64,000 nucleotides of DNA. It comes from Thermotogota bacterium (GTDB lineage Bacteria; Hydrothermota; Hydrothermia; LBFQ01). The position numbers and the translations under genes were made by a program. Below the pieces are notes generated by a model that searched no databases, was not told the DNA's origin, and saw only the letters and a list, made by a program, of their open reading frames with translations. Shown piece after piece: positions 7,104 to 64,000 of the stretch. The stretch lies in assembly GCA_013154295.1 (NCBI GenBank), contig JAADCS010000139.1, forward strand, positions 7,107 to 71,106. The letters are read 5' to 3'. Each line of letters starts with the position of its first letter. Positions within the stretch are counted from its first letter, which is position 1.

Positions 7104-8734
7104 TGTGGTTTCTGCCCTTTCTGGACACCCTTCTGCTGTACGGGGGGCTTGAGAGAGGGGATCTGAACTACGATAAGGATCTGGCCGTGCGCACCTCTCT
7201 CAAACCCCCACCCGTTTTAAATTCTTTAGCTGATCCCCTTAACTTCGCACGGAGTTCCATCCATCTCGGCAGAGAGTTCGTGAGCCTAAAACCGCAGGAA
7301 ATACCACTCAAGGTGTGGCAAGTGAAATTCAAACCTATAAGGATGCGTACCCACTTCAGCATAAACGACAGCGTCATCGGTAAGGTTGTGGAACTACTCC
7401 ATTGCAATGATTACTTCACCGGTAGGGCCTTAAGCAGATTGGACAGAAGGCGATATTCTCTACGTGACTCCCTACTAAAGCTATGGGATCCAGACTCCGA
7501 AGACAGCCTAACCCACGCCCAGGTTAAACTCCTAAGCGACTCTGTGGATTATAATCTACTTCTCAACGCACTTAACTGCCTTTTAAACGTGGATAGTACC
7601 TTGGTTCCATCCTTGGATGGGGACTTCCAATACGAATACGTAACCGGCTTCGGTAAAGTGGCAGTGGGAGGTAAGGGAAGTAACACCTATCGTGGAAAGT
7701 ATGTGGCTATATACGACTTCGGGGGTGATGATGAGTACGAGCTGGAAACCTCCCCCGTCCTCATAGTGGATCTAGAAGGTGACGATCGCTACGAGGGGGA
7801 GTTCGCGGTGGGGATATTGGGAGTATCGGCTCTTTACGACTTCGGCGGGGATGACACCTACACTTGCAAGGGTATGTGTGCGGGTGTAGGTCTGGTAGGT
7901 TTTGGCCTGTTGTACGATATGTCAGGCGATGACTTTTACTCCGGGGGCTTCCATTCCCTTGGAAGCGGAACCTTCGGCGGTGGTTTCCTGATAGATGAAG
8001 CCGGGAATGACATCTACAAGACCGTGATATACGGGCAAGGTTTCGCCGGCACCTATGGCATGGGAGTCCTTTCGGATCGTTCCGGGAACGACACCTACAC
8101 CCTAGGCTATGGGCCAATCCACAAACCCCTCTTCATAAGGCAACATCAGGGTTTAGGCCAAGGTTTTTCCATAGGATGGAGGGATCGTTTCGGTGGGGGT
8201 GTGGGAATCTTAGCTGATGGTGGAGGTAATGATGTATACGCGTCGGGAACCTACGCTCAAGGTGTAGCTTACTGGTACGGCTTAGGCCTGCTGTACGACG
8301 GCGGAGGGGACGACAGGTATCTGTGTGCCCAATACTGTCAGGGAGCCGGTATACATTTGGCCGTGGGTGGTCTAGTAGATATGGATGGAAACGACCTCTA
8401 TTACGCCCTCTATGGGCCGAGCATAGGTGAGGGTCACGATCTATCCGTCGGATTTTTCTATGACTCCACTGGTAACGACACCTACTACACCAGTGGGGGG
8501 TTCGGGGTCGGTCTCACGAACTCGGTGGGTATCTTCGTGGATGGTTCCGGAAAGGACAGCTATTCGGCCAAGGAAGACATCTCTTTCGGCGGAGCCAACC
8601 GCGAGAGGGAGATGGGTGGTGTGGGTATATTCCTTGATTTAGGCGGAGATAGGGATACCTATCCCTTCGGATTTCATGTAAAGAACGGTTCCCTTTGGGT
8701 TAGACCCCAGTGGGGTTTGGGATGGGACCGGTAG
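7103..8734 (+). CDS. uncharacterised repeat protein (12-13 x D-x-x-G-[ND]-D-x-Y units), paralog A
   Basis: GTG start overlaps the upstream TAG. A ~185-aa helical N-domain is followed by repeats DFGGDDEY, DLEGDDRY, DFGGDDTY, DMSGDDFY, DEAGNDIY, DRSGNDTY, DGGGNDVY, DGGGDDRY, DMDGNDLY, DSTGNDTY, DGSGKDSY, spaced ~20-35 aa apart and separated by G-x-G-rich strands. Confidence 0.7.
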   Translation: MWFLPFLDTLLLYGGLERGDLNYDKDLAVRTSLKPPPVLNSLADPLNFARSSIHLGREFVSLKPQEIPLKVWQVKFKPIRMRTHFSINDSVIGKVVELLHCNDYFTGRALSRLDRRRYSLRDSLLKLWDPDSEDSLTHAQVKLLSDSVDYNLLLNALNCLLNVDSTLVPSLDGDFQYEYVTGFGKVAVGGKGSNTYRGKYVAIYDFGGDDEYELETSPVLIVDLEGDDRYEGEFAVGILGVSALYDFGGDDTYTCKGMCAGVGLVGFGLLYDMSGDDFYSGGFHSLGSGTFGGGFLIDEAGNDIYKTVIYGQGFAGTYGMGVLSDRSGNDTYTLGYGPIHKPLFIRQHQGLGQGFSIGWRDRFGGGVGILADGGGNDVYASGTYAQGVAYWYGLGLLYDGGGDDRYLCAQYCQGAGIHLAVGGLVDMDGNDLYYALYGPSIGEGHDLSVGFFYDSTGNDTYYTSGGFGVGLTNSVGIFVDGSGKDSYSAKEDISFGGANREREMGGVGIFLDLGGDRDTYPFGFHVKNGSLWVRPQWGLGWDR

Positions 8735-9374
8735 TGACCTTTTCGGCCACAAAGAGGTAAGTGGAACCCAAATAGAAATAGTACGTTTTCCGCAACAAAA
8801 AGCCACTCTCTCTCAATAAGCTCTCCATACGACTACGTCCTGGAAAGTTGAGAATGCTTTTAAACAGGTAGATGTAGTCAAAGGGATTACCGCCAAATGC
8901 AGGCGAAAGCAATGGCATAACCAAGGCCACGTAAGGGAGCTGAATCCAAGAGAGAGGGTGATCACCTATCTTCATTTCCAGTATCAAAAGCTTGCCGCCG
9001 GGAACGAGGACACGATTGAACTCCCTTAGAGCCGCCAACTTATCGAGAACATTGCGAAGACCGAAAGCTATGCTTACCGTCTTAAAACTTTCGTTTCTTA
9101 TGGGTAAATTTTCAGCATCCCCGACTATGAGAGGGAAATTTCCCTTCGCCCTTTTTAACATACCTAAAGCTATATCCACACCCATCTTGGAGCCATGGTG
9201 GTAGAGACGGAGGACGTTTCCCTCACCCGTAGCCACGTCCAAAAGGGGTCCCTCCACCTCTTTTATAAGGTACCGCCTCCACGTTAGGTTCCTACCGAAG
9301 GAAAAGATAACGTTCCTGGCCTCATACATCCGCATGTTCTCAAACATATAACTTATACGCCTTTTATCCTGCAT
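8700..9374 (-). CDS. ubiE: class I SAM-dependent methyltransferase, UbiE/MenG (demethylmenaquinone methyltransferase) family
   Basis: LLDVATGEGNV (motif I), GDAENLPIRNESFKTVSIAFGLRNV (UbiE-type GLRNV signature) and LVPGGKLLILEM. Confidence 0.75.
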   Translation of the reverse strand: MQDKRRISYMFENMRMYEARNVIFSFGRNLTWRRYLIKEVEGPLLDVATGEGNVLRLYHHGSKMGVDIALGMLKRAKGNFPLIVGDAENLPIRNESFKTVSIAFGLRNVLDKLAALREFNRVLVPGGKLLILEMKIGDHPLSWIQLPYVALVMPLLSPAFGGNPFDYIYLFKSILNFPGRSRMESLLRESGFLLRKTYYFYLGSTYLFVAEKVTTGPIPNPTGV

Positions 9375-10436: not shown

Positions 10437-12085
10437 GGGCAGGATTTACCCTTGCATACCACTCCTTTGGTTGGGAAGGAGGACCTAAGACTCAAAGTGT
10501 CTACAGCCGGGTTGCTGAAACCCAATCCCTTACCCTTTAGATGGACCTGCAGTCGTCCATCCTTGTCCCAGAATATACCTACCCCCTGGGCGTTGCCACT
10601 ACCTAAACACAGGTTGTTGCACGTATAGGTATCGTTCCCGACACCATCCACCAGGAGGCCATAGGAAAAATCGTGCCCAACGCCTTGGGATGTAGAGCGA
10701 GCCGAAAAGTACGCATCGTCCCCATCCTCGTCAAAGAGAACACCTAAGGCGAAATGGGCAGCGGAGCCTTGAACGTACCAGACTCCCGAATAGGCATCGT
10801 TACCCTGACCGTCGTATAAAACGCCACTTCCCCACCAGTATCCGACCCCTTGAGCGAATACACCTGCGTAATAACGATCGTTGCCGGATAGATCCGTCAG
10901 TATCCCTATACCTCCGGCCAAAGAGTGACCGTCGTAGAAATCTCTCCTCTCACCGTATCCCATCCCTTGGCCTAAGTTGGCGTTATGTTTGGGATCCTGG
11001 GGTGAGGGAAACAAGATAAGAGAATCTTCAAGGGTGTAGGTATCGTCCCCCGAAAGGTCAGCCAATATTCCCACACCTTTTACCCAGCCGAAGCCTTGCG
11101 CCTTCTGATAGGCGTAGTAGGTATCGTTTCCGGATACATCTATCAAGAGACCACCACCGTTGTAGCCAGCCCCCAAAGCGAACACTTTGGTCCTGTAAGT
11201 ATCGTTTCCCGCCAGATCGAACAGCGCTCCGAAACCGGAAAAGCCGGCCCCCATACCCTTACCCTCGTACAGGTCATCTCCCTCTACATCCACAAAAACT
11301 GACACGGAGAACCTACCGAAACCCACGGATCCGGTGTAGGTGTCGTTTCCGGAGAGGTCTACCCCCAAAGCTACGTCCCCGTAGGTATCATCCCCTCCCG
11401 CATCCACCACTATCAGGGCATCGGGAAAGCTGTCATTCTCCGGTCCTCCAAAGGCGATCACACCCCAAGGTGTACTCACTCTCAAACTCTTAAGATCTCC
11501 CCCCTCCTTCCGCAAGGCCGACTTTAAAGAATCAACGAGCAGACACATAACTTGAAATGCATAGGCTTCCCGATTCACATCTTTTAAGGCTATCGCTTCG
11601 TATTCCTTCTTTTCTTTGATGGAGAGACTGTCCCACATGTAAGCGGTGGGGTCTTTTACCTTTTTGGATACCAAGGGGAGATAGAGTTTGAGGAGAGCAG
11701 TGATTATACGGTTTATACGTCGGGGAACGTATTTTGGTATCGCTTGAAGGGTTTCCCTTTGGGTTGGCGTCAAACGTTTGGCGTTATCAAAGATGAACTT
11801 ACCCAGGGGATTTTCACCAGTTATACCCAGGACTTCCTGCCTGTAGATGTCTCCTAAAAGACCGGCTTTTACATTGTAGCCCGCCAGTTTGGTTATGAGG
11901 GCGCAGGCAGGCATCAGCTTAAGTGTATCCCCCTGGAGATACCATCTTTTCCCAATCTTTCTGGCCGTTACCATGGCAAAGTTGGGATTGGAAAAGAACA
12001 TTTCCCCTATTGGAAGGGGAGAGTGGGGACCAGCCCAAAACTTGAGGGCCATTCCCGATATTAAAAAGAGTGTGGAGTCTATCAT
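10433..12085 (-). CDS. uncharacterised repeat protein (10-11 x D-x-x-G-[ND]-D-x-Y units), paralog B
   Basis: A ~230-aa helical N-domain is followed by DAGGDDTY, DLSGNDTY, DVEGDDLY, DLAGNDTY, DVSGNDTY, DLSGDDTY, DLSGNDRY, DGQGNDAY, DEDGDDAY, DGVGNDTY. It is colinear with 7103..8734, including the long linker after the sixth repeat. Confidence 0.7.
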   Translation of the reverse strand: MIDSTLFLISGMALKFWAGPHSPLPIGEMFFSNPNFAMVTARKIGKRWYLQGDTLKLMPACALITKLAGYNVKAGLLGDIYRQEVLGITGENPLGKFIFDNAKRLTPTQRETLQAIPKYVPRRINRIITALLKLYLPLVSKKVKDPTAYMWDSLSIKEKKEYEAIALKDVNREAYAFQVMCLLVDSLKSALRKEGGDLKSLRVSTPWGVIAFGGPENDSFPDALIVVDAGGDDTYGDVALGVDLSGNDTYTGSVGFGRFSVSVFVDVEGDDLYEGKGMGAGFSGFGALFDLAGNDTYRTKVFALGAGYNGGGLLIDVSGNDTYYAYQKAQGFGWVKGVGILADLSGDDTYTLEDSLILFPSPQDPKHNANLGQGMGYGERRDFYDGHSLAGGIGILTDLSGNDRYYAGVFAQGVGYWWGSGVLYDGQGNDAYSGVWYVQGSAAHFALGVLFDEDGDDAYFSARSTSQGVGHDFSYGLLVDGVGNDTYTCNNLCLGSGNAQGVGIFWDKDGRLQVHLKGKGLGFSNPAVDTLSLRSSFPTKGVVCKGKSCP

Positions 12086-12109
12086 AGACGTAAATTTTAC
12101 CCCCGCTTT

Positions 12110-12619
12110 CTAACAGGTACGGCAGCTTCCTTTAGATTTCTCCTTACGACACCCCTTTTCGTCGCATACATACCCCGGAGGTGGCCTAAGAGCCACGTCC
12201 TTGACTTTAAGGACATAGCGAACGGTCTCGCCGGCTAAGGGGTGGTTGAAATCTACCACAACCGTTTTCTCCCTGACCTCCAGGATAGAAAGGGCCACAG
12301 GTTCATCGCTCTGGGGATCACGCATGTATAGGACTTTACCCGGCACGAGATTCAGATCCCCGAACTCCTCTTTGGGAAGCTCTTTAACCAGCTCCTCTCT
12401 GAAGGGGCCGAATCCTTCCTCCGGAGTCAGAACTACCTCTACACTATCTCCCACACGTTTCCCTTCCAGGGCCGTTTCTAACTTCGGGTGGATGTGGCCA
12501 AAGCCGTGCCTATAGACGAAAATACCCCTGTCTATCGGCCCCTCCCCTTCTATGTGGAGTTCGTACTCGACGCTTACGTACCGGGTGGGATATACGACTT
12601 CAGGATTGGTGGGAGGCAT
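12110..12619 (-). CDS. slyD: FKBP-type peptidyl-prolyl cis-trans isomerase, SlyD-like, with Cys-rich tail
   Basis: VSVEYELHIEGEGPID...YRHGFGHIHPKLETALEGKRVGD...FNHPLAGETVRY is the SlyD/FKBP core with an IF insert. The C-terminus is CDEKGCRKEKSKGSCRTC. ATG 12619 is chosen over the ORF-track 12655 to limit overlap with lon. Confidence 0.75.
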   Translation of the reverse strand: MPPTNPEVVYPTRYVSVEYELHIEGEGPIDRGIFVYRHGFGHIHPKLETALEGKRVGDSVEVVLTPEEGFGPFREELVKELPKEEFGDLNLVPGKVLYMRDPQSDEPVALSILEVREKTVVVDFNHPLAGETVRYVLKVKDVALRPPPGYVCDEKGCRKEKSKGSCRTC

Positions 12620-14957
12620 GTTCCTGGCCGAAGATCTCCCTAAGGGCGTCCTCAACGGTGTTTATAAACACGAACTGGAGACGATTCTTGATGTGCTTGG
12701 GAACATCCTCCAGATCCTTAGAGTTCCACTCTGGAAGTAACACCTTTCTTATGCCGGCCCTGTCAGCTGCCAACACCTTTTCCTTTATACCTCCGACGGG
12801 AAGGACCTTACCCCTTAGAGTTATCTCCCCGGTCATAGCGACGTCGGGAGGAACCTTCAGATCCAAAGCCAGCGAGTAGAGAGCTACGAACATGGTTATA
12901 CCAGCCGAGGGACCATCCTTAGGTATAGCTCCAGACGGAACGTGTAGGTGTATAAAACCCTTGTCCCAGAAGTCCGGAGTCACCCCCTTCTCGTAGGAAA
13001 ACTTGCGGGCCAGAGTAAGGGCAGCCTCGGCCGATTCCCGCATCACCTCACCCAACTTACCTGTTAGTTTGAAACCCTTGTCTCCTGGAACCCTTAAGGC
13101 CTCCACGAAGAGTATTGATCCACCGGTCGGTGTCCAGGCCAGACCCGTCACCACGCCTACCTTGGCCTCCCTCTCGGCCAACTCCGGATAGTACTCCGGC
13201 GGCCCCAAGAAATCGGGTATCCTCTTGGGAGTTATCCTCATCCGGCCGCACTTGAGTTTGCCCTCCTCTATCTGCAGGGCTATACGGCGAAGTATCCGGT
13301 TTATCTTGCGCATCAGCTCGCGCACACCGGCTTCGCGGGTGTATTCCTCAACTATCCGGGCTATAGCCTCGGTTGTGAAACTGATCTTACACTCCTTCAG
13401 ACCTGTGGCCTCTTTCTCCTTAGGTATCAAGAATTCCTTGGCTATGTGTATCTTCTCCTCAAGTGTATAGCCGGGTATCTCTATTACCTCCATACGGTCC
13501 AAAAGCGGAGGAGGAATGGTCAAGGTAGTGTTCGCCGTAGTTATGAAGAAGACCTTGGACAGGTCAAAGGGTAGGTCAAGGTAGTGGTCCTTGAAGGAGT
13601 GATTCTGCTCCGGGTCAAGGACCTCAAGAAGGGCGGAGGCCGGATCCCCGCGCCAATCCGTCCCCAACTTGTCTATCTCATCCAACATCATGACGGGATT
13701 ATTAACTCCCACATCTCTAAGGGCCGAGATTATCTTGCCCGGCAATGCACCGACGTAGGTGCGCCTGTGTCCCCTTATCTCGGCCTCATCCCTGACCCCT
13801 CCCAGGCTTATGCGTATGAACTTTTTGTTTAGGGCACGGGCTATGGACTTACCCAACGAGGTTTTACCCACACCCGGAGGCCCTACAAAACAGAGGATAG
13901 GAGCCTTGCCCTTGGGGTTGCGCTTACGGATGGCTATGTACTCCAGTATACGTTCCTTGACTCTCTCCAGATCGTAGTGATCCTCATCCAATACCCGGCG
14001 AGCGTTGGCCAGGTCCATATTGTCCTCGCTGCTTTCCAACCAGGGAAGTTCTAAGATCCACTCTATATAGGTACGGATCACGTGGTACTCCGGTGAAGCG
14101 GAGGGAACTCTTTGTAGTCTCTTCAGTTCCCTCTCGGCGACTTTACGTACCTCCTCTGGCAAGGGTTTCTTCCTTAGTCGTTCCTCCAGCTCGGCTATCT
14201 CGGATTGTTCGTCGGCTATGCCCAGCTCTTTCTGAATGGCCTTGAGTTGTTCTCTCAGGTAGTACTCCCTCTGGGCCTTTTCCATCTCCCTTTGGACTTC
14301 CCTCTGGATGCTCTGAGCAACCTCGGCTATCTCTATCTCACGGGTTATATACGTCAGAACTTTCTGTAGGCGTTCCTTCACGTCTATGGTGGCCAAGACT
14401 TCATACCTCTCTTCGGGTTTCATGTTTTGGATTAGGGAAGCGAGAAGGTCGGCTAAAGCTCCGGGCGTAGGGGCGTTCGTTAGGGCGTTTATCACCTCTG
14501 GAGGCAACTTGCCATATTCGGATAAACGGCGAGCAGCGTTTAGAACGCTCTCACGAAGCGGCCGGATTTCCCTTTCGTCGTACTCCGGTTCCTCTATAAC
14601 TTCAACTCTCCCCTTAAGATAGGGCTCACTCTGAAGTATCTCCAGAAGCCTTATCCTTTTAACGCCATTAAGAAGAACCCTTATGTTTCCGTCGGGAAGA
14701 CGATTCATACGCACGATGATGGTAGCGGTACCAATAGGATAAAGATCCTCGTAAGAGATAGCCTCCTTTTCGGGATCCTTCTGCATAAAGGTAGCTATTA
14801 TCTTGGGCTCTACCGGCGTGGCTAAGATGTCGTTTATAAGGCGTTTGGACCTTTCAACGCCGACCAAAACCGGCGCCGTGGAAAGGGGAAAGATAACCCC
14901 TCCCTTTATCGGTAAAATTGCAATTTCTTCAGGTATTTCTACGGAAGGTATCTGCAT
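12600..14957 (-). CDS. lon: ATP-dependent Lon protease (LonA)
   Basis: 785 aa with an N-terminal LON domain. Walker [10 protein letters not shown], Walker B MMLDEIDK, and protease site [11 protein letters not shown]...K. Confidence 0.95.
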
Positions 14958-23845: not shown

Positions 23846-25276
23846 ATGTTGTTTCTCTTGGGTTGGGTTGTGCGCATAGATGGTGGGAGTGATGACAGAT
23901 GTTACGGGGTTCTTCTGGCCCCCGATGGCAACCCCGTCGTCTTTGGCAACTACGCCAATTCTGTCTATGCAGCGAAACTCTTAGCGTCCGATGGTGCGTT
24001 CTCGTGGCAATATATCTTCGCTTTTCCCGGTGATGGTAGATCCAATGCCAAAGCTGGCTTCTGGGATCCCACCGATTCATCGCTGGTGCTGGGTGGCACC
24101 GCCTATCCCTATTCCGGTGACGATCAGGCCTGTGGTTTTGTGGCCAAGATCCGCGGCGGCACCACCCTTTGGATGTATGTAGATTCCGCCGATGGATGCA
24201 GCCGGCGAGAGGGATTTTCAGGTGTAACACGTGGATCTGACGGTCAATACTACGCCTATGGCACGGATTACGAAACCTACAGCGCGGATTTCTTCACACC
24301 AAGCCGACGTTTCGTACTCAAGTTAGATAGAAATACCGGTTTAAAACTGTGGAGATACCAACCCGGTGGTTATTCCTATACAGCCGCCGCATCCTCCGAT
24401 GACGGAGTCGTGGCCGTAGGCTTCGGTGCTGAAGGGGAAGCTCAAAAGGTGGGGTTGGATGGGGGAGAGATCTGGACTATAACTCCTCGTGACGCTAAGT
24501 TTTGGAATGTGGCCGTGGCCTCCACGGGACATCCGGTGGTTGTGGGACGACGCGATGGAGATTTCTACGTAGCTCAACTTCAACGGGAGAGCGGAGGGAT
24601 CCGATGGGAAAGGTACTTTAACGGATCGGCTAACGATGATGAGAGCGCCCTACGTGTTATAGCGGTTGGAGAACACATCTACGCAGCAGGCTATCTGGAT
24701 AACGGTATAAACGACCTGGACGGATTTTTGGTGAAGTTAGATACGTTAGGGAACATCCTATGGAGTTTCACTTATAACTCACCGTACAACTACGAAGACA
24801 GCTTAAGCTCCCTGGCCTTCGGTGATGGGACTTTGGTTGTGGGAGGCTCCTCTAAAGGATGGGGAACAGGTTGGGACATACTGCTCTTCCTGGCGGATAC
24901 CTCCTCCGGTGACACTCTATGGAGTTACAGATACGATTCCCCGTATGCTCTGGACGATTTTTTGGCGGGGATGGCGATTGGGAACGGGAAGATCTTCCTT
25001 TGTGGGACCTCCTACTCATCCCCAACTAACCGGGATATAGTGGTTGTGGGTATGGACCTCCCGACGTTAGTCAACGAGAACTCACGTCACGTTCCCTTCT
25101 TTGAAGTTAGAGGAAATAGGGTTATGGTAGAATTCACAGGTAGGGTTGAAGTTTTTGATCCATCCGGACGATCGTTTTGGAGAGGAGTTTCGAACGGCCG
25201 TTTGGAGTTAAAACTCCGTCGTGGAGTGTGGTTCATCAGGATTGAGGGAAGAACCTATAAGCTCCTTATACGGTAG
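23846..25276 (+). CDS. beta-propeller repeat (SBBP/PQQ-like) protein with T9SS-type CTD
   Basis: Repeated ...LW.Y/ILWSF... blades with D/G-rich loops. C-terminal VEVFDPSGRSFW...GVWFIRIEGRTYKLLIR. ATG 23846 lies 6 nt after TAAAAT. The ORF track starts at TTG 23840. Confidence 0.65.
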   Translation: MLFLLGWVVRIDGGSDDRCYGVLLAPDGNPVVFGNYANSVYAAKLLASDGAFSWQYIFAFPGDGRSNAKAGFWDPTDSSLVLGGTAYPYSGDDQACGFVAKIRGGTTLWMYVDSADGCSRREGFSGVTRGSDGQYYAYGTDYETYSADFFTPSRRFVLKLDRNTGLKLWRYQPGGYSYTAAASSDDGVVAVGFGAEGEAQKVGLDGGEIWTITPRDAKFWNVAVASTGHPVVVGRRDGDFYVAQLQRESGGIRWERYFNGSANDDESALRVIAVGEHIYAAGYLDNGINDLDGFLVKLDTLGNILWSFTYNSPYNYEDSLSSLAFGDGTLVVGGSSKGWGTGWDILLFLADTSSGDTLWSYRYDSPYALDDFLAGMAIGNGKIFLCGTSYSSPTNRDIVVVGMDLPTLVNENSRHVPFFEVRGNRVMVEFTGRVEVFDPSGRSFWRGVSNGRLELKLRRGVWFIRIEGRTYKLLIR

Positions 25277-25859
25277 TTTCGGTGGGGATTTTGAAGGGTC
25301 TCCCTATTCCTAAGGGTCGGTGAGAGGTCACTATGATAGTACGCCCTTTCCTATGGAGTTCCAGCAGGCTACTTTTCAGCTTCCGGGTTGTTTCCTCATC
25401 GAGGTGTGAAAAAGGTTCATCAAGGGCCAAAACCGGCGCAGCGGACGAAAGGATCCTCACTAACTGTACCTTTCTGTTCTGCCCCGACGATAGGGATTTG
25501 AGGGGACGATCCAAGAGGGCGTTTATGTTGTAGTAGCGTGCCCACTCGCCCCATACCGAAGTTAGGGATAACGATAGGTATCTCCTTACAGTTATGTCCC
25601 CCCTAAGGATCTCCGCAAACATCACCGAGACGTATCGGACCCGCTCTATCGGTTTAAGCATCAGGATGTTCCTATTGAAAACTTTTATTTCCCCTCGGAC
25701 ACTAACAGCTCCTACCAAGGCTTTCAGTATGGTCGTCTTGCCTACCCCGTTGTCACCGTACAGGTTGAGTATTTCACCCACATCTATACGCAGATTCAAA
25801 CCCTCTACCACAGGAGATGTGTAGCCCACGCTACACTTTACGAATTCCACCGCCTTCAT
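25266..25859 (-). CDS. ABC transporter ATP-binding protein (small, orphan)
   Basis: Walker A GDNGVGKTT, signature LSSGQNRKV, Walker B VLALDEPFSHLD, H-loop TSH. Only 197 aa, with no permease in the operon. Confidence 0.85.
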   Translation of the reverse strand: MKAVEFVKCSVGYTSPVVEGLNLRIDVGEILNLYGDNGVGKTTILKALVGAVSVRGEIKVFNRNILMLKPIERVRYVSVMFAEILRGDITVRRYLSLSLTSVWGEWARYYNINALLDRPLKSLSSGQNRKVQLVRILSSAAPVLALDEPFSHLDEETTRKLKSSLLELHRKGRTIIVTSHRPLGIGRPFKIPTETTV

Positions 25860-30550: not shown

Positions 30551-30556
30551 TAAAAT
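30551..30556 (+). promoter_or_regulatory. -10-like box TAAAAT, 8 nt upstream of clpB ATG 30565
   Basis: CACCCTTAAAAT. A second candidate, TGATATAAT (extended -10, 30523-30531), lies 25 nt further upstream. Confidence 0.4.
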
Positions 30557-30564
30557 TGCAACTT

Positions 30565-33500
30565 ATGGATTGGAAAGGCAAACCTTTGAGCAAGGGCCTT
30601 GAAAACTACCTGCGAAAGGCCAAGGAGATTGCCAGAAAGCGAGGCGAATTCTACGTCGATAGCGATCACCTGCTGGCGGCTCTGTTTTCGGACAGAGAGG
30701 GTCCCTTCGCCAAGTATTTAGAAAAGAGAGGTATCCCCTATGAAGCCGCCAAAAACGAGGTTGATAGAGTTCTAGAACAGGCATGGAGCCAGCTGGATCA
30801 GGTTGAAAACTCGTACTATGACACCCTTCACAAATTGGCTAACCGCCTCTCAGCGGATTATGGCGTAGATGTCAAACCCTTCCTGGCCCAGGTGATACGT
30901 GCCGCTGCCCAGCCAAAGAGAGATGAGAGGATGGTGCGGGTGAGGGTGCGCCGTTGGGCGCCGTCCCTCGAGGATGAGTGGGAGAAGCTGCTTAGGGAGT
31001 TTTTCGGTGAGAGTTTCGGGGGTCTCTTTTCAGGTAGACGCTGGTCCTACACCGAGGATTATGTATCCCTTCCGGAAAGCCTCTATAACGACCTTCGCGG
31101 CAAGGTAAGTGATAGTCTGTTAGCCGAGTTAGCTGACATATACGATAAGTTCTCCGGTGCCTTCGCTAATCTTCTCCAGAGTGGCTTCGATCCCCGGAGA
31201 ATAGCCCGATCTATCTTAAAGAGGATGGGTGTGGAGGCCGAAGCCGAGCCGGTCTGGTCCTACTATGTGGAGGGTGCTTTAAATCGGGCCTCCGAAAAGG
31301 ATAAAGGAACCATAGACACGGCGGATCTTTTGGAGGCCCTAATGGGTAATGGAAGTTTCGCCGGTAACATCCTCAATCAACTGTTAAGCGTCAAAGTTCC
31401 AGAAGGAGGTAAAGGTATGAACAGGATGGAAGATCTAAGGGAAGAGGAAAAGAGCGCCCTTGAGCGTTTCACAACCGATCTAACCAAACTGGCGGAGGAG
31501 GGCAAACTGGATCCCGTAGTCGGTCGTGATCGTGAGATACAACAGGTTATAGAGGTTCTCCTGCGCCGCAGCAAGAACAACCCGGTCCTCATAGGTGAGG
31601 CCGGAGTGGGTAAGACGGCCATAGTTGAGGGGTTGGCCCAACGGATAGTCAAGGGAGAGGTACCCGAGGGTTTAAAGGGTAAGAAGATCCTTTCGTTGGA
31701 CACCGGGTCTCTCATAGCTGGTACCCGCTACAGAGGAGATTTTGAGGAGCGACTGAAGAAGTTAGTTGAGGAGCTGAAAAACAGAGATGATGTTATACTC
31801 TTCATAGACGAGATCCACAACATAGTCGGAGCCGGCAAGGCCGAGGGAGCACCTGCCGACGCCGCCAACCTCCTCAAGCCCGCTCTGGCCCGCGGTGAGA
31901 TACAGGTGATAGGGGCCACAACTGCTGACGAGTACCGCAAACACATAGAGAAGGATGCCGCTCTAGAACGTCGTCTCCAACCCATATGGGTGGATGAACC
32001 GGATCCCGAAAAGGCCCTTCTGATGGTGAAAGCTGTGAGGCCTAAGCTTGAGAAGCACCACAGCGTAGAAATAAGCGATGACGCCCTTGAGGCAGCAGTA
32101 AAGCTCACCCACAGGTATATGCCCGATCGTCGCCTCCCCGACAAGGCCATAGACGTATTAGATCAAGCCGCTGCCCGCAAGAAGTTGAAGATAACTTCCC
32201 CAGCTCTCTTTGAAAAGGAAGTACAGGAGAAGATAGCCGAGTTGCAGGCGGAGTTGGAGAGAGCCAAACTCCGTGGGGATGAAGCTGCAGCCAAGCAGAT
32301 CCAGCAACACATAGAGAGTTTGAAAAAGCAGGTTGAAGGCGTGAAGAAGGAGGGCGAGGATCTCTCTTCGCTAAAGAAGAAGATAGAGGAGTTGGAGAAA
32401 GAAGTGAAGAAGTTGGAGGAAGAGGGTAAAATTGAGGAATGGGAAAAGAAGAACGCCGAACTCCTCAAACTCAAGAAGAAGTATCTTGAGGCCCAAAGAA
32501 AGGAGGGTAAGGCCAAGATCGTGATAACGGCTGAAGACGTGGCCGAGGTGGTCTCCAACATCACCGGAATACCTCTATCCAAATTGGTTGAGGAAGAGAA
32601 AGAGAAACTCCTTAAGCTGGAGGAAGAGATACATAAGAGGATAGTAGATCAAGAGGAAGCCGTTAAAAAGGTGGCCGAGGCCATACGGAGAGCGAGAGCC
32701 GGTGTGTCCGATCCTAAACGTCCCTTGGGTTCCTTCCTCTTTTTGGGGCCCACAGGTGTGGGTAAGACGGAGTTAGCCAAAGCTCTAGCGGAGGTTCTCT
32801 TCGGGGACGAGGATGCCCTAATACGTCTGGATATGTCTGAGTTCAAGGAGGAGCATTCAGTAGCAAAACTCATAGGTGCTCCTCCAGGATACGTGGGGTA
32901 CGAGGAGGGAGGCAAGCTCACGGAGGCCGTCCGTCGCAAGCCTTACTCTGTCTTATTACTTGACGAGATAGAGAAAGCCCACCCGCGGGTCTTTGACCTC
33001 TTCTTGCAGGTATTGGATGACGGTCGTCTGACTGACTCACAGGGTCGCACGGTTTCCTTCCGCAACACTGTGATAATCATGACCAGCAACTTAGGGGCTG
33101 AGTACATCCGTGAGGTGGCGGATCGTTTCAACAGGGCTTACCAGAACCTCGACAAGAACGACCCCGACTTCACGAAGAAGGTAAAGGAGTTGGAAGCGGA
33201 GTTTGAAAAGGACTTCGAAAAGGCTAAGCAGAAAGTCCTGGAACTGGTGCGTTCCTACTTCCGTCCGGAGTTCCTCAACCGTATAGATGAGATCGTCGTT
33301 TTCAAACCTCTGCGTTGGGACCACGTCCTTCAGATAGCTCGTCTCCTCATAGAGAAACTCAACAAACGCTTAGCCGATAAAGGTATCAGGGTGGAGTTGG
33401 ACGACAAGGCCTATGAGCTGTTGGTAAAGAAAGGCTTCGATCCGCTCCTTGGTGCTAGACCTCTTCGTCGCGTCATCCAAAGGGAAATAGAGAATAAACT

Positions 33501-33588
33501 CTCCGAACTCATAATCGCCGGAAAGGTTAAGGAAGGTGATACGGTTAAGATCACGGCCGAAGGGGAGGAATTCGTCTTTCAGGTATGA
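30565..33588 (+). CDS. clpB: ClpB-type AAA+ disaggregase with enlarged, split N-domain
   Basis: NBD1 GEAGVGKTA / ILFIDEIH. A ~115-aa coiled-coil M-domain. NBD2 GPTGVGKTE / [10 protein letters not shown]. Two Clp_N repeats (SDHLLAALF and [10 protein letters not shown]) are separated by ~150 extra aa. Confidence 0.9.
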
Positions 33589-59601: not shown

Positions 59602-60765
59602 TTATACGAATTCCGGTTCCACTTGAACGGTCTGTTTTAGGTAATCATAGGCTTTTCGAATTAAGTACTTGTTCGCTAGCTCTTCGTATTTACCCCGCTT
59701 CTTTGCCTCTTTTAGGAACTGTTCTGGGTTTTCTTCGCTTTCCTCCTTTAGGTACTTAATTATATCTTCCTCCGTTATCTCTATATCTTTCTCGTCTATG
59801 AGTCGTAGAATTACGAGATCGCGAAGGACCAGAAAGGCTGCCATCTGAAGAAGCTCCTCATCCACTTCGGAGGGGTCTTTCCCCATGTCGGCAGCCAGAT
59901 CTTGGTACACTTTAAAAACCAAACTGGGAGGTGGTTCAAAAGGAGCAAGACGTAAGATCTCACGGATTATGGCTTCCTCCAGAAAGAGTTCCGCTTCTTT
60001 CTGCGCATCCTCTACCAGTTCCTGACGTATCCTTTCACGCAGTTGGTCGGGGGGATAGCCGAGAAGTTCGGCCAGCTCTTCATCCGATGGGTACTCCATC
60101 TCAAGGACTTTCTTTATCTCATACACCTCTTCTTCACCTTCCTCTTCTCCAGGTAAGATTATCTGATCACCCGCCTTTTTACCTAAAATAGCATTATACA
60201 GTTCTTCATCTAACTCGCTGGCCTTCACAAATATGCGGGCCCTCCTCCTTTTGCTCTCCTTTCCATCCTTGCGGATGAAAAACTCAGCTAAAACCACATC
60301 TCCCTCGCGCACCTCCCGATCAACGCTCTTGAGTGTGGCATTCTCCTCTTTTAGATGCTGTATCTCCTCCTCAACGTCCGCGTCGGTTATTTTTCTGATA
60401 CGTTTTTTGACCTTTATCTGGGTAAGATCCGGTATCTCTATCTTCGGATACACCTCAAACCTTAAGGTGTACTCGTACGCATCATCCATTTCACTTTTGG
60501 CTACGATCTCGGGAGTACCTATGATGATCCAATCTCTTTCTCCGGCCAGCTCTCTTATCTTGTCGTCTAGGGCTTTCTCAATCGCTCTGCTTTCTATGTA
60601 CTCACCGTAGTGTTTCTTCACAAGCGATATGGGGGCTTTACCTGGACGAAAGCCGGGAATTTTTACCCTGCTCGCTATCTCGCGGGCAACCTTATCTTCG
60701 TACTTTTTGATCTCCTCCTTCGATATGATGATCTTCTCCTCTCTAACTGACTTTCTCTCTTCCAT
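59602..60765 (-). CDS. tig: trigger factor
   Basis: Ribosome-binding signature PGFRPGKAP, a short central FKBP-like segment, and a helical C-domain. 387 aa (compact). Confidence 0.85.
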   Translation of the reverse strand: MEERKSVREEKIIISKEEIKKYEDKVAREIASRVKIPGFRPGKAPISLVKKHYGEYIESRAIEKALDDKIRELAGERDWIIIGTPEIVAKSEMDDAYEYTLRFEVYPKIEIPDLTQIKVKKRIRKITDADVEEEIQHLKEENATLKSVDREVREGDVVLAEFFIRKDGKESKRRRARIFVKASELDEELYNAILGKKAGDQIILPGEEEGEEEVYEIKKVLEMEYPSDEELAELLGYPPDQLRERIRQELVEDAQKEAELFLEEAIIREILRLAPFEPPPSLVFKVYQDLAADMGKDPSEVDEELLQMAAFLVLRDLVILRLIDEKDIEITEEDIIKYLKEESEENPEQFLKEAKKRGKYEELANKYLIRKAYDYLKQTVQVEPEFV

Positions 60766-60773
60766 AACCGCCT

Positions 60774-60779
60774 ATTTTA
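60774..60779 (-). promoter_or_regulatory. -10-like box TAAAAT, 8 nt upstream of tig ATG
   Basis: AGTAAAATAGGCGGTTATG on the minus strand, with no SD. Confidence 0.4.
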
Positions 60780-60909
60780 CTGGAGATTAATACCTTAGAT
60801 GCTTGGAATTGGTAGCTGCACCACGGGAACATTTGAGGAAAGGTTTAGTTTACCTTCGGTAGCATATACGAACGATCTAAAGAGGTGCTGCTTTGACAGG
60901 GTAAATGGT

Positions 60910-60947
60910 GGTTTCACTTGGAGGCTATTTACCCTCACAGTGAAACC
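60910..60947 (+). repeat. 38-nt palindromic GTTTC...GAAAC repeat, copy C1
   Basis: GGTTTCACTTGGAGGCTATTTACCCTCACAGTGAAACC, with a 9-bp terminal stem and a 4-bp inner stem. Confidence 0.85.
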
Positions 60948-60996
60948 ATTACATGCTACTGCTAATACCTATCCTTCCGGTAAAAAAGTGTGGGCT

Positions 60997-61034
60997 GGTA
61001 CCACTATGAAGCTGCTTGACCGCAAAGTGATACC
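60997..61034 (+). repeat. 38-nt repeat, degenerate copy C2 (49 nt downstream of C1)
   Basis: GGTACCACTATGAAGCTGCTTGACCGCAAAGTGATACC. Same length, the same GGTAyCACT/AGTGAtACC terminal stem, and scattered internal matches to copy B. Confidence 0.6.
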
Positions 61035-61069
61035 GACCTGATGCTCTGGGGAATTGGGACACAAGACAA

Positions 61070-61596
61070 TTATTTCCGCAAGAACCTGATAAATTTTTTA
61101 AACTCCTTATCCTCACACGCGTTGGCCACCCTCCTACTCACACCCTTTGCTATGAGTTCTAACACGCCCCTCCCGTACGGTACCTTTACGGAGCGTGCTA
61201 TACACTCCAGAGCCTCCTTAGGTCTTTCGGGTTTTCCGTTCTCCCTTAGGCTGTACTTCTTGCGGCACTCCTTCACGATTGATTCTTCGACCTTTAAGGC
61301 TCGTGCGAGTCTTTGGGTATCATACCACGCCCATATCTCTATCTCCGGAGATGGTACGATGACAGCTATGTCCTCCTCCTTCCAGTTGGTGTTTTCCCAC
61401 TCCTCATCCAACATCACCATGACCTTTTTGGCTCTGCCTTGGTAGTACTCCCGTAAGAGCTCGTAGGGTTGTTGAAAACCCCCGGATCGCTCTCCTCGTG
61501 GATGATCACTTCATATCTGACTTGGCCGATTCTAAGGCTCCTCGTTAAGTAGAAGTCCGCCACCAGTATAACGACGTCGTATTTTTGTTCGTTCAT
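61070..61596 (-). pseudogene. DUF4276/TOPRIM-like small partner protein, disrupted by one frameshift
   Basis: Two ORFs (61414..61596 and 61070..61420) lie in different frames. The downstream frame reads back to 61510 as ...GGFQQPYELLREYYQGRAKKVMVMLDEEWE..., so the junction lies between 61417 and 61510, most simply at the A4C5 run at 61475-61483. Motifs VMVMLDEEWE and IVPSPEIEIWAWYD resemble the acidic/EAW motifs I recall for DUF4276. ATGA overlap with the ATPase stop. Confidence 0.6.
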
Positions 61597-62828
61597 AGAA
61601 TACCACTCACCATCAACTTATCCAGGGGTATTTTCTTTCTCCATTTCCGCAACGCGGGATGCTCTGTCCCCCTCACTATGTCGGTAGCTCCCTCCTTGGT
61701 CTTCCTAAAGACGAGTATATCCCCCGGCTGCATCTGGCGTAACAGGAGGAGGGAATGAGTGGCTATGAATATCTGGTTATCTGAAGTGGATTTGAGTACT
61801 TCTAACAAACTACTCACGGCACGGGGATGTATTCTGTTTTCAGGCTCTTCTATCAAGAATATGCGTTTTTGGGGTGGAAGGAAGGGAATAGCACTAAGGG
61901 CGAGAAAGCGGAGGGTCCCGTCGGATAGCACCCAGGAGGGAGCCTTTAGACCGTATCTGTAGCGGAGGACTATATATAGGAAGTTATCTTCCGGCCTGCG
62001 GTGTATCTCAATATCCTCAACGTCCTTCAAGGTGGCGCTCACGTGGGAGACGTACCACAAAAACCTTTGCGGGTAGTTTCCCTTTAGGTTTAAAGGGGCT
62101 ATGGGAAGGTTGGAACCGTCAGGCTGAAAGTTGATGGGAGCACTCGGAGAAGTTGGACGTCTCATTTTTTCAACGTTGAGGTGGATAAAAAGCAGCGAAT
62201 TTTTCAGTATGTTCCTAAACCATAATGAAGTGCGAAACCTTCGCTCATCTTCCAACAGTACGGATAGGACAGGCTTACAGGGGTTTATATCAAGGGTTAT
62301 GTTGAAGGGTTCGAGGCCAAGCTCCGACCTCATATACACCCTTGGGCCGTACTCCAACCTGCGGGCCACCAACCTGTGGCCCGGCGTCGTTCTCACTTTT
62401 CTCTCCGTGGTATCAATGAGGGGTTTATCCGGAAAAAGGATTGGAAGCAGGCTCCTCTCTGGGGGTGGGTCGCTAACGGAGGAGCTCTCCACCAGGTACA
62501 GGTGCTCCCTCACGGGAGCGGGACCGTACTCTTCTTATCTTTGGATTTTATACGGTACTCTTCCGGCAATTCATACTCTATTACGAATTCAAAACCTTCA
62601 TCGACGTTCTTCATCATCCATACGAGATGGGAAAAGTCGGGTGCTCTCTTTTGCACCGCACCCATAACCCCATTTTCGCGAGGTTATCATGTCTTTTACG
62701 AAGAGGAGAACATCAAGGAAGTTACTCTTACCGGAAGCGTTTGGCCCTATCAGAGCGTTGAAAGGGCCCACAGGTACATCCACCCACCGTAGGCTTCGGT
62801 ACCTGTGGGCTTTCAACCTTATTAACAT
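61593..62828 (-). pseudogene. ABC/SMC-like AAA_21-type ATPase, disrupted by two frameshifts
   Basis: The N-terminal ORF 62598..62828 carries Walker A (GPNASGKSNFLDVLLF). The C-terminal ORF 61593..62513 carries FQPDGSNLP, the signature SDGTLRFLALSAI, Walker B IFLIEEPENRIHP and H-loop IATHS. Both are in the same frame but separated by four stops. The intervening segment reads cleanly in another frame (ENGVMGAVQKRAPDFSHLVWMMKNVDEGFEFVIEYELPEEYRIKSKDKKSTVPLP). Confidence 0.7.
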
Positions 62829-62835
62829 TTCTCCC

Positions 62836-64000
62836 TTAGTTTCCTAATACGGCCTGGGCTGCTGATAGCCGGGCTACGGGAACTCTAAAGGGGGATGCAC
62901 TTACGTAATCAACTCCAGCTTTATAGAACTTACGTATGCTCTTGGGATCACCCCCGTGTTCTCCACATACTCCAACCTCTAGATCCGGTTGTTGCCTTTT
63001 GCCTTTCTTAGTGCCTGTAGCGACCAGTTCAGCTACAGCATCATCTACGGTTTTGAAGGGATCCTCAGTCAGGAGCTTTTTCTCTATGTACTCCGGGAGG
63101 AACTTGCCGGCGTCGTCCCTTGAGAAACCCAAGGTCGTTTGAGTTAGATCGTTGGTGCCAAAGGAGAAGAAGTCGGCATACAGAGCTATCTCGTCCCCGC
63201 ATAGGGCAGCTCTGGGTAACTCTATCATGGTACCTACCTCTATATTCCCCTTGAGACTGTACTTTTCGAGCGTCCTTTCCACTATCTCCCGGACGGCTTT
63301 CATCTCGGTGGCGAAACCTACCAGAGGTAGCATTATTTTGGGTTTGGGATCGTAACCTTCTTCTTTGAGCTTTAGATAGGCTTCGGCTACAGCCTCTACC
63401 TGCATGGCATATATGTCGGGATAGGTTATGGCTAAACGTACCCCTCTGTGACCCAGCATAGGGTTAGCTTCTTCAGTGGTTTCCACCAGATGACGTATCT
63501 CTTCCTCATCTATACCCACGTACCGGGCTGTCTCTCTTATTTGATCATCAGTGGTGGGTAGGAACTCGTGTAAGGGTGGATCCAAAAGGCGGATTATGAC
63601 CGGCAAGCCATCCATCTCCTTAAGGAGTCCATAAAAGTCCTCCCGTTGATAGTTTTTTATGCGTTCCTTCGCTCTCTCGTAACGCTCACCTTTTCGGGAG
63701 GCCAGTAGTATCATGGTACGAAAATCCCTTATACGGTCTTCGGAGAAGAACATGTGTTCGGTTCGGGCCAATCCTATACCTTCAGCTCCGAACTCTCTCG
63801 CCTTGCGAGCATCTTTGGGAGTGTCGGCGTTGGCTCGTACTCCCAACTTTCCACGGCGCACTTCATCGGCCCACATGAGCAATTCCGCCACTTCGCCACC
63901 CAACTTCGGTTCCTCTTTAGGAACATCACCTAAGTATATGATGCCTGATCCTCCATCTATGGTTATCACGTCTCCCTCCCCAAGCGTTATGGGAACACCT
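62836..64000 (-). CDS. ppdK: pyruvate, phosphate dikinase (C-terminal PEP/pyruvate domain; N-terminus beyond window)
   Basis: GLARTEHMFF, FFSFGTNDLTQTTLGFSRDDAGKFL, VGVCGEHGGDPKSI. The frame stays open to nt 64000. Confidence 0.9.
   Translation of the reverse strand, partial: GVPITLGEGDVITIDGGSGIIYLGDVPKEEPKLGGEVAELLMWADEVRRGKLGVRANADTPKDARKAREFGAEGIGLARTEHMFFSEDRIRDFRTMILLASRKGERYERAKERIKNYQREDFYGLLKEMDGLPVIIRLLDPPLHEFLPTTDDQIRETARYVGIDEEEIRHLVETTEEANPMLGHRGVRLAITYPDIYAMQVEAVAEAYLKLKEEGYDPKPKIMLPLVGFATEMKAVREIVERTLEKYSLKGNIEVGTMIELPRAALCGDEIALYADFFSFGTNDLTQTTLGFSRDDAGKFLPEYIEKKLLTEDPFKTVDDAVAELVATGTKKGKRQQPDLEVGVCGEHGGDPKSIRKFYKAGVDYVSASPFRVPVARLSAAQAVLGN

Follow-up and report, generated by a model that had tools for sequence, protein, structure and literature searches.

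The stretch of DNA analysed here, hereafter the window, comprises 64,000 nucleotides (nt) of contig JAADCS010000139.1 from a Thermotogota bacterium. On its minus strand, between ppdK and tig, the open reading frame (ORF) list and a three-frame translation reveal two overlapping genes that together span 62828–61070, both of them broken. The upstream gene encodes an ABC-type ATPase resembling MAD3 and the downstream gene a small protein resembling MAD4, two components of the methylation-associated defense system (MADS). The parts of this pair are as follows.

61593–62828, minus strand: mad3-like ABC/AAA_21 ATPase pseudogene, whole span, in three reading-frame pieces; conceptual repair gives 411 amino acids.
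62598–62828, minus strand: N-terminal ATPase piece, a 76-amino-acid ORF that carries Walker A (GPNASGKS) and is out of frame past 62680 (ORF list, translation).
62510–62665, minus strand: middle ATPase piece, a 51-amino-acid ORF readable in the +1 frame only (ORF list, translation).
61593–62513, minus strand: C-terminal ATPase piece, a 306-amino-acid ORF with FQPDGSNLP, the signature SDGTLRF, Walker B IFLIEEPE and the H-loop ATHS (ORF list, alignment).
61593–61596, minus strand: ATGA stop/start overlap, in which the ATPase TGA meets the small-gene ATG (sequence).
61070–61596, minus strand: mad4-like (DUF4276-related, putatively Toprim-fold) small-protein pseudogene; conceptual repair gives 175 amino acids.

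A preliminary description of this DNA, made from its letters and ORF list, had proposed that the two genes are coupled through the ATGA overlap, and we confirm this at 61596–61593. The same description held that the N- and C-terminal parts of the ATPase lie in one shared frame with four stops between them, while about 55 intervening codons read cleanly in another (the +1) frame, and translation reproduced this. The small gene is broken into ORFs of 60 and 116 amino acids. All five of the ATPase motifs quoted earlier (GPNASGKS, FQPDGSNLP, SDGTLRFLALSAI, IFLIEEPE and ATHS) are present, and the elements to which they belong, namely Walker A, the Q-loop region, the signature, Walker B and the H-loop, are conserved in the family alignment. 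As these motifs extend over the whole chain, the ATPase has no space left to include a nuclease domain. The ATPase ATG at 62828 is preceded by a GGGAG ribosome-binding motif and lies 7 nt past the ppdK stop (62836–62838), and because of this short distance the cassette is probably co-transcribed with ppdK. Its GC content of 49.5% equals the window average.

The conceptually repaired ATPase matches NCBIfam model NF047739, 'methylation-associated defense system AAA family ATPase MAD3', over its full length (E 9e-105, 351 bits), and intact orthologs reach 403.5–406 bits. It also matches Pfam AAA_21 (E 1e-33), which bears out the earlier view of an AAA_21-type ATPase with a small acidic partner. 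In PADLOC the ATPase is matched by AriA, HEC-01A and mad3, with the HEC-01A model giving E 4.6e-33 for the window ATPase and 1.4e-43 for an intact ortholog. A search of PDB sequences returned as closest solved relatives OLD (6P74, 2e-15), PtuA, GajA and AriA (1.4e-6), in agreement with the architecture class of OLD, PARIS and Gabija to which the pair had been assigned. The repaired small protein matches NCBIfam NF047734, MAD4 (E 8e-26, 91 bits); its intact orthologs score 114–149 bits, one of them 148.7 bits (E 2.4e-43). The PADLOC mad4 model matches intact small proteins of the family at 3e-11 to 5e-27, including the intact ortholog of the window protein at 3e-11, and the HEC-01B model matches weakly (E 0.034 for the window, 7.7e-4 for the ortholog). 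Profile scans on repaired frames, which had been suggested as a check, thus yielded NCBIfam MAD3 and MAD4 together with PADLOC HEC-01A and mad4. Homology of the ATPase to MAD3 is clear, and the window pair with its intact orthologs forms a diverged branch of the MAD3/MAD4 family.

When clustered at 50%, the family of the small protein counts about 1,600 representatives, almost all of them 200–215 amino acids long. Pfam scans for DUF4276, RloB and Toprim gave nothing significant for the repaired small protein or its intact orthologs, and in one of 26 family members DUF4276 was matched at E 0.06. Across 57 diverse family representatives DUF4276 was the sole recurrent Pfam match, found in seven, with a best E of 5.5e-6. 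The family is related to DUF4276 (PF14103) remotely and does not count as part of it by the Pfam threshold. The authors of the MADS study assigned Mad4 to DUF4276 by HHpred (Maestri et al., bioRxiv 10.1101/2023.03.30.534895), and DUF4276 is placed in the Toprim superfamily in the literature.

For the intact ortholog P0121, AlphaFold gives a confident model (predicted local distance difference test score, pLDDT, 90.5; predicted template modelling score, pTM, 0.87) in which four strands alternate with helices as beta-alpha units and the C-terminal half is helical. Its best meaningful match among PDB structures in Foldseek is 6NK8, the Toprim region at the C terminus of OLD from Burkholderia pseudomallei (BpOLD), with a probability of 0.98, and GajA is the next structural match. 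Five acidic residues are invariant in the family alignment: D14, D48, D75, E114 and E116. Against the predicted strands, D14 falls after beta-1, D75 (with E77) after beta-3, and E114 and E116 after beta-4. Toprim catalytic residues likewise sit just past strands. The match to 6NK8, though weak, agrees with two published analyses, one of DUF4276 as Toprim and one of HEC-01 as a TOPRIM pair. The original label of a DUF4276/TOPRIM-like protein therefore fails as a Pfam assignment for the window protein and its orthologs, and finds support in the seven of 57 family members, in the literature and in the resemblance of the AlphaFold model to the Toprim region of OLD.

To define the damage, the window was aligned at the DNA level with L001, an intact ortholog locus, and a four-way alignment was added for the small gene. 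L001 is the contig of P0001, an intact close ortholog found by protein search with the conceptually repaired ATPase, at 80% identity; compared with the L001 locus, the window ATPase has about 82–85% amino acid identity. Five lesions were located.

62680/62679, minus strand: lesion 1, ATPase, 1-nt insertion, CCTC[G]CGAAAA (alignment to L001).
62535/62534, minus strand: lesion 2, ATPase, junction of a 55-nt deletion (alignment to L001).
61547/61546, minus strand: lesion 3, small gene, 33-nt in-frame deletion (alignments).
61465/61464, minus strand: lesion 4, small gene, 1-nt deletion, AACCCT-ACGAG, the frameshift that splits the gene (alignments).
61394/61393, minus strand: lesion 5, small gene, 54-nt in-frame deletion (alignments).

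Taking out the inserted base of lesion 1 restores DMITSENGVMGAV, the counterpart of DMITSEDGVMGAV in the orthologs. Lesion 2 costs the ATPase about 18 conserved codons (including GKERLYDRIKYMLKVGTG) that are found in 15 of 15 aligned homologs, and with them a conserved strand-containing segment in Insert-1. Lesions 1 and 2 total -54 nt, and so the ATPase frame recovers downstream. In the small gene, lesion 3 takes out helix alpha-1 (including SHTETFVEVLLKEKG), which directly follows the conserved LVAD strand, and lesion 5 removes the conserved GSPGK loop and the helix after it. The three long gaps are read as deletions in the window because the missing segments are present in all 15 ATPase and all 25 small-protein homologs aligned. 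The preliminary description had counted three lesions in total, having overlooked the two in-frame deletions of 33 and 54 nt in the small gene. Its first ATPase indel, placed within 62601–62684, is indeed there as a 1-nt insertion; its second lies at the edge of the proposed interval, 62513–62534, and is a 55-nt deletion rather than a simple indel. Similarly, the frameshift in the small gene does fall within 61417–61510, but not at the run at 61475–61483, which is conserved in L001; the true site is about 15 nt off.

The window was also held to have no other broken genes. This is consistent with the ORF map, which has 63 tightly packed ORFs and no further split pairs, a statement made at the level of the map and without an exhaustive homology test. 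The map bears on one alternative, that the genes are intact in the organism and that errors of sequencing or metagenome assembly introduced the frameshifts and gaps into the contig. Such an origin would fit the two of five lesions that are single-nucleotide indels, and a metagenome contig matches the window at 100% identity. However, none of the five lesions lies in a homopolymer run, and three of them are clean deletions of 33, 54 and 55 nt; a nearby G5/T4 run is intact and conserved; no other gene in the 64 kb looks broken on the ORF map; and at a related locus, L087, this gene has suffered a different deletion, which makes decay of the module a recurrent event. Sequencing error is an unlikely cause of lesions that stand outside homopolymer runs and in three cases span tens of nucleotides, and we rate the artefact explanation as quite improbable. 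The decay of the gene pair is genuine, as the preliminary description had argued, because three of its five lesions are 33–55-nt deletions of a kind atypical of sequencing error.

The 306-amino-acid ATPase piece and the 116-amino-acid small-protein piece are long ORFs with start codons, and one may ask whether the split ORFs still function, either through programmed frameshifting or as separately acting fragments. What the lesions took away speaks to the contrary. The deletions remove universal segments (the Insert-1 strand of the ATPase, alpha-1 and the GSPGK loop of MAD4), the +1 insertion cuts Walker A off from the remaining ATPase, and the -1 deletion puts D14 of the small protein in a different frame from D75 and E114, distributing the acidic residues of MAD4 over two frames. 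There is no slippery site or stimulatory structure at the shift points, and the orthologs are unshifted. Continued function of the fragments is therefore extremely improbable. Judged as a functional gene pair, with open frames and conserved segments kept, the locus fails on five indels, three of which remove segments universal among homologs. At two positions that do not vary elsewhere in the family, the ATPase has substitutions of its own, G334R (within EEPENG) and P362L (within ATHSP); as other members show 0–4 such private changes, the count of two gives no significant sign of relaxed selection.

Among the matches listed, a related ATPase occurs at 81 loci, of which 80 come from a genome scan that spans many phyla; the closest relatives of the window lie outside the listing of that scan. 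In 70 of the 81 a small gene follows the ATPase immediately and in the same direction, and in about 64 of these 70 the two genes overlap in the same arrangement, with 600–690 nt from stop to stop. Most pairs are stand-alone, no further gene family being common to more than five loci. The few recurrent neighbours are subunits of type I restriction-modification (R-M) systems, in the order hsdM-hsdS-[pair]-hsdR, and Hma components (DUF499, DUF1156). Pairs between hsdS and hsdR or beside Hma DUF499/DUF1156 were seen at L046, L033, L034, L056, L064 and L078, and at L016, L050, L069, L032 and L058. Several of the mostly stand-alone pairs carry 'methylation-associated defense system' names in NCBI records.

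The preliminary description knew of no characterised function for such a pairing. It corresponds to MAD3-MAD4 of MADS, both genes of which are needed for phage resistance, and also to HEC-01. MADS was described in Pseudomonas aeruginosa SMC4386 (Maestri et al., bioRxiv 10.1101/2023.03.30.534895, later Cell Host Microbe 2024) as an operon of eight genes, encoding a helix-turn-helix protein, a methyltransferase, MAD3, MAD4, a specificity subunit, a kinase, a DptG-like protein and a HerA-like protein, and phage resistance requires each of mad2–4 and mad6–8 (10.1101/2023.03.30.534895). The MacSyFinder model of the same authors makes the MAD6 kinase, the DptG-like MAD7 and the HerA-like MAD8 mandatory, within 10 genes. 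The window pair is like MADS in its full-length matches to MAD3 and MAD4 (NCBIfam) and mad3 and mad4 (PADLOC), in the order of ATPase then small protein, and in their coupling. It differs in that MAD1, 2, 5, 6, 7 and 8 are not present around it: the direct flanks are ppdK and tig, and we find no MAD6, MAD7 or MAD8 and no DNA methyltransferase (MAD2) or HsdS-like (MAD5) gene beside the pair. The window copy is, moreover, a pseudogene that scores just under the equivalog cut-offs, and most of its relatives stand alone.

Dispersal of the MADS genes over the window was considered and set aside, as the PADLOC mad2 (two matches), mad3 and mad8 matches elsewhere in the window were attributed to non-specific models, on identification of part of the members concerned. 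Those candidates that were checked by NCBIfam are housekeeping genes: a UbiE/MenG-like methyltransferase with a SAM motif (8703–9374), an ABC-transporter ATPase, Lon and ClpB. The PADLOC mad2, mad3, mad8 and BrxL matches at 8703–9374, 12603–14957, 25269–25859 and 30556–33585 apparently fall on housekeeping proteins, and these models mislead when applied gene by gene. As a separate observation, the ClpB ORF (30556–33585, plus strand) is 1010 amino acids long as listed and its match to the ClpB model begins at about residue 287; either its TTG start is called too far upstream or it has an unusual N-terminal extension, and a 336-nt gap lies upstream.

The second counterpart, HEC-01, is a PADLOC candidate system comprising an ABC ATPase (HEC-01A) and a TOPRIM protein (HEC-01B) with an OLD-like metal site, and it was defined in an Hma context (Payne et al., 10.1101/2024.01.29.577857). 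The window pair shares with it the two-gene module of ABC ATPase and Toprim protein on one strand, with adjacency and overlap confirmed and a strong HEC-01A match, and some relatives of the window pair are embedded in Hma (DUF499/DUF1156) loci. Unlike HEC-01, the window pair lies outside Hma, and the HEC-01B models match it weakly. In OLD and Gabija GajA (PDB 6P74, 6NK8, 8SM3), which provide the nearest ATPase structures and, in BpOLD, the Toprim region that the small-protein model resembles, the ATPase is fused to the Toprim nuclease; the window pair is encoded as separate polypeptides, the structural match is weak (template modelling score, TM, below 0.5), and the small protein has D in place of the canonical Toprim E after beta-1. 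PARIS, with its ABC ATPase AriA and DUF4435 Toprim nuclease AriB, has the same split two-gene architecture, and the window ATPase matches AriA both in PADLOC (E 1e-34) and as a PDB sequence (1.4e-6). The partners differ, being DUF4435 in PARIS and DUF4276-related here, with no AriB match. The target of PARIS is tRNA, which it cleaves.

The genes on either side of the pair are listed here together with the structures found in the spacer between the small gene and tig.

62836–63969, minus strand: ppdK, 3' part (ORF list).
59602–60765, minus strand: tig (trigger factor), the downstream neighbour (ORF list).
60982–61038, minus strand: terminator-like hairpin at 61038–60993, then a U6 run at 60987–60982, about 30 nt past the small-gene stop (folding).
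60909–60948, no strand assigned: imperfect palindrome with 19-nt arms, 84% complementary (repeat search).

The hairpin at 61038–60993 with its U6 run is plausibly the terminator of a ppdK-mad3-mad4 transcript. A 196-nt region that contains it has a fold z-score of -2.1, and a simple terminator scan reported neither the hairpin nor the palindrome. CRISPR-like repeats had been called at 60910–61034, but no direct-repeat array is found there: within 60700–61150 we see inverted repeats only, with nothing beyond chance two-copy direct matches, and the two hairpins stand in place of the array. The palindrome at 60948–60909 is probably the source of that call. Neither Rfam, run at gathering score and with E <= 1, nor a tRNA scan gave anything real in the window or the tig-proximal spacer, and tblastx against the relatives' flanks detected no remnant of a third gene in the 304-nt spacer.

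A search for intact orthologous pairs, which the preliminary description had suggested, found them in relatives just after ppdK. In four related assemblies (L001, L085, L086 and L087) ppdK, mad3 and mad4 lie directly in series on the same strand, and in a fifth (L002/L003) the pair is convergent with ppdK; in the window and these relatives the spacer between ppdK and the pair is usually almost nil. The downstream neighbour varies by lineage, being tig in the window, a H+-PPase in L085 and L086, and a 165-amino-acid gene plus a glycosyltransferase in L001. In no relative does tig lie beside the cassette, and in one it is on another contig. In L001, the third ORF (11861–12358, 165 amino acids) overlaps the end of mad4 and is seen in L001 only, being absent from the window; it has no NCBIfam or PADLOC match and a faint TnsA-like endonuclease N-terminal signal (E 0.09).

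Two of these assemblies carry very different cassettes beside nearly the same ppdK. When L002:10001–14683 is compared with L085:3968–8618, ppdK is 96.6% identical (synonymous divergence, dS, 0.12), mad3 is 53.6% and mad4 about 34% identical, and the pair is in opposite orientation relative to ppdK. With ppdK near-identical and mad3 divergent, the cassette must have been replaced or acquired independently. Between the window and L001, mad3 (about 82–85% amino acid identity, dS 0.87) is closer than ppdK (76% amino acid identity, dS saturated). In L087 (8001–8589, GCA_964473735.1) mad3 is intact, but mad4 lacks an internal stretch of about 250 nt (PSPE… to …ACGDEEF), a loss that is out of frame; P0149, which belongs to the 90%-identity cluster of this mad4, is full length at 209 amino acids. 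The decay of mad4 in L087 is independent of that in the window. By ppdK, the genome of the window would be the outgroup of the cassette-sharing clade, among whose assemblies are GCA_054044525.1, GCA_027050205.1, GCA_015494805.1, GCA_964473735.1 and GCA_027048815.1. Its full ppdK (L091:787–3678, running past window position 64000) has 963 amino acids as compared to 906–937 in relatives, at about 76% identity.

A housekeeping role of the pair as an accessory of ppdK, rather than a defence-type module, would explain why it is found at the ppdK 3' end in the window and five related assemblies, usually on the same strand and with almost no spacer. This association ends with the clade, since neither ppdK nor any other conserved neighbour accompanies the pair in any of the 80 loci from other phyla (among the matches listed), and some pairs reside inside type I R-M or Hma operons. 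Even at ppdK, the L002 pair is inverted and only about 53% identical despite near-identical ppdK, decay has occurred in two lineages, and experiments show that phage defence needs the homologs MAD3 and MAD4. We therefore regard a ppdK-accessory function as very improbable. Because the copies at the ppdK flank are variously intact, replaced or independently decayed, the data indicate that the cassette is a dispensable accessory module gained and lost at the ppdK 3' flank, and not a partner of ppdK.

From the homology, the lesions, the genomic context and the fold resemblance, the locus is in all likelihood a pseudogenised stand-alone copy of a MAD3-MAD4 (PADLOC HEC-01-type) module, a dispensable accessory whose intact form would be a 'split OLD nuclease'. 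Several observations weigh against this reading. The MAD3 and MAD4 scores, those of intact orthologs included, are under the NCBIfam equivalog cut-offs (420 bits for NF047739, 160 bits for NF047734). The profile of the MAD4-like family found no match among PDB sequences even at E 10, and the structural match to 6NK8 is weak in absolute terms (TM 0.46–0.49, E 0.014). The ratio of nonsynonymous to synonymous substitution rates (dN/dS) gives no sign of relaxed selection, at 0.087 between the window and L001 as compared to 0.089–0.159 for intact-intact pairs; as this is the same as for intact copies, decay must be recent relative to divergence. The lesions are known at the level of the assembled sequence. 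A 108.6-kb contig of JGI metagenome 3300005095, Ga0072504_118296, contains the window at 100% identity, and the same ORFs lie on a 74.8-kb NCBI contig; the two contigs may be one and the same assembly, and given the identity of the JGI contig to the window, an independent occurrence of the same lesions cannot be claimed. Finally, a defence role for stand-alone MAD3-MAD4 pairs is unproven and the sole assay is negative: the single stand-alone HEC-01 that was assayed gave no protection in E. coli (10.1101/2024.01.29.577857).

For the intact module we infer an ABC/SMC-like ATPase (MAD3-like) translationally coupled to a Toprim-fold protein of about 210 amino acids (MAD4-like). By analogy with OLD, GajA, PARIS AriA/AriB and Septu, the pair would act as a 'split OLD', in which a separately encoded Toprim nuclease is under the control of an ABC ATPase. 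The ATPase may sense a trigger or DNA and gate the putative metal-dependent nuclease, with the result that invading DNA would be restricted or the infection aborted. In the genome of the window the module is dead, both frames being broken and conserved structural elements deleted by the five indels. A broader proposal, which we hold to be somewhat less likely than not, is that the stand-alone pair is an autonomous, methylation-independent 'split OLD' defence, that its presence in MADS, R-M and Hma loci reflects secondary recruitments, and that the ppdK 3' flank is a dedicated hotspot of cassette acquisition, swap and loss in this thermophile clade.

In short, the two genes are real but unremarkable pseudogenes and represent, in decayed form, a known candidate defence module. 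The window copy itself matters little, as it is a dead copy of a module already in the NCBIfam MAD3/MAD4 and PADLOC HEC-01 catalogues. What novelty is left concerns how commonly MAD3-MAD4 pairs stand alone and how the cassette turns over beside ppdK. For the family, the name 'methylation-associated defense system' given by the NCBI Prokaryotic Genome Annotation Pipeline (PGAP) overstates the content of the mostly stand-alone pairs seen across the 81 loci. For this group of organisms, the 3' flank of ppdK, with its intact, swapped and independently decayed copies, offers a compact natural series for the turnover of a small defence cassette.

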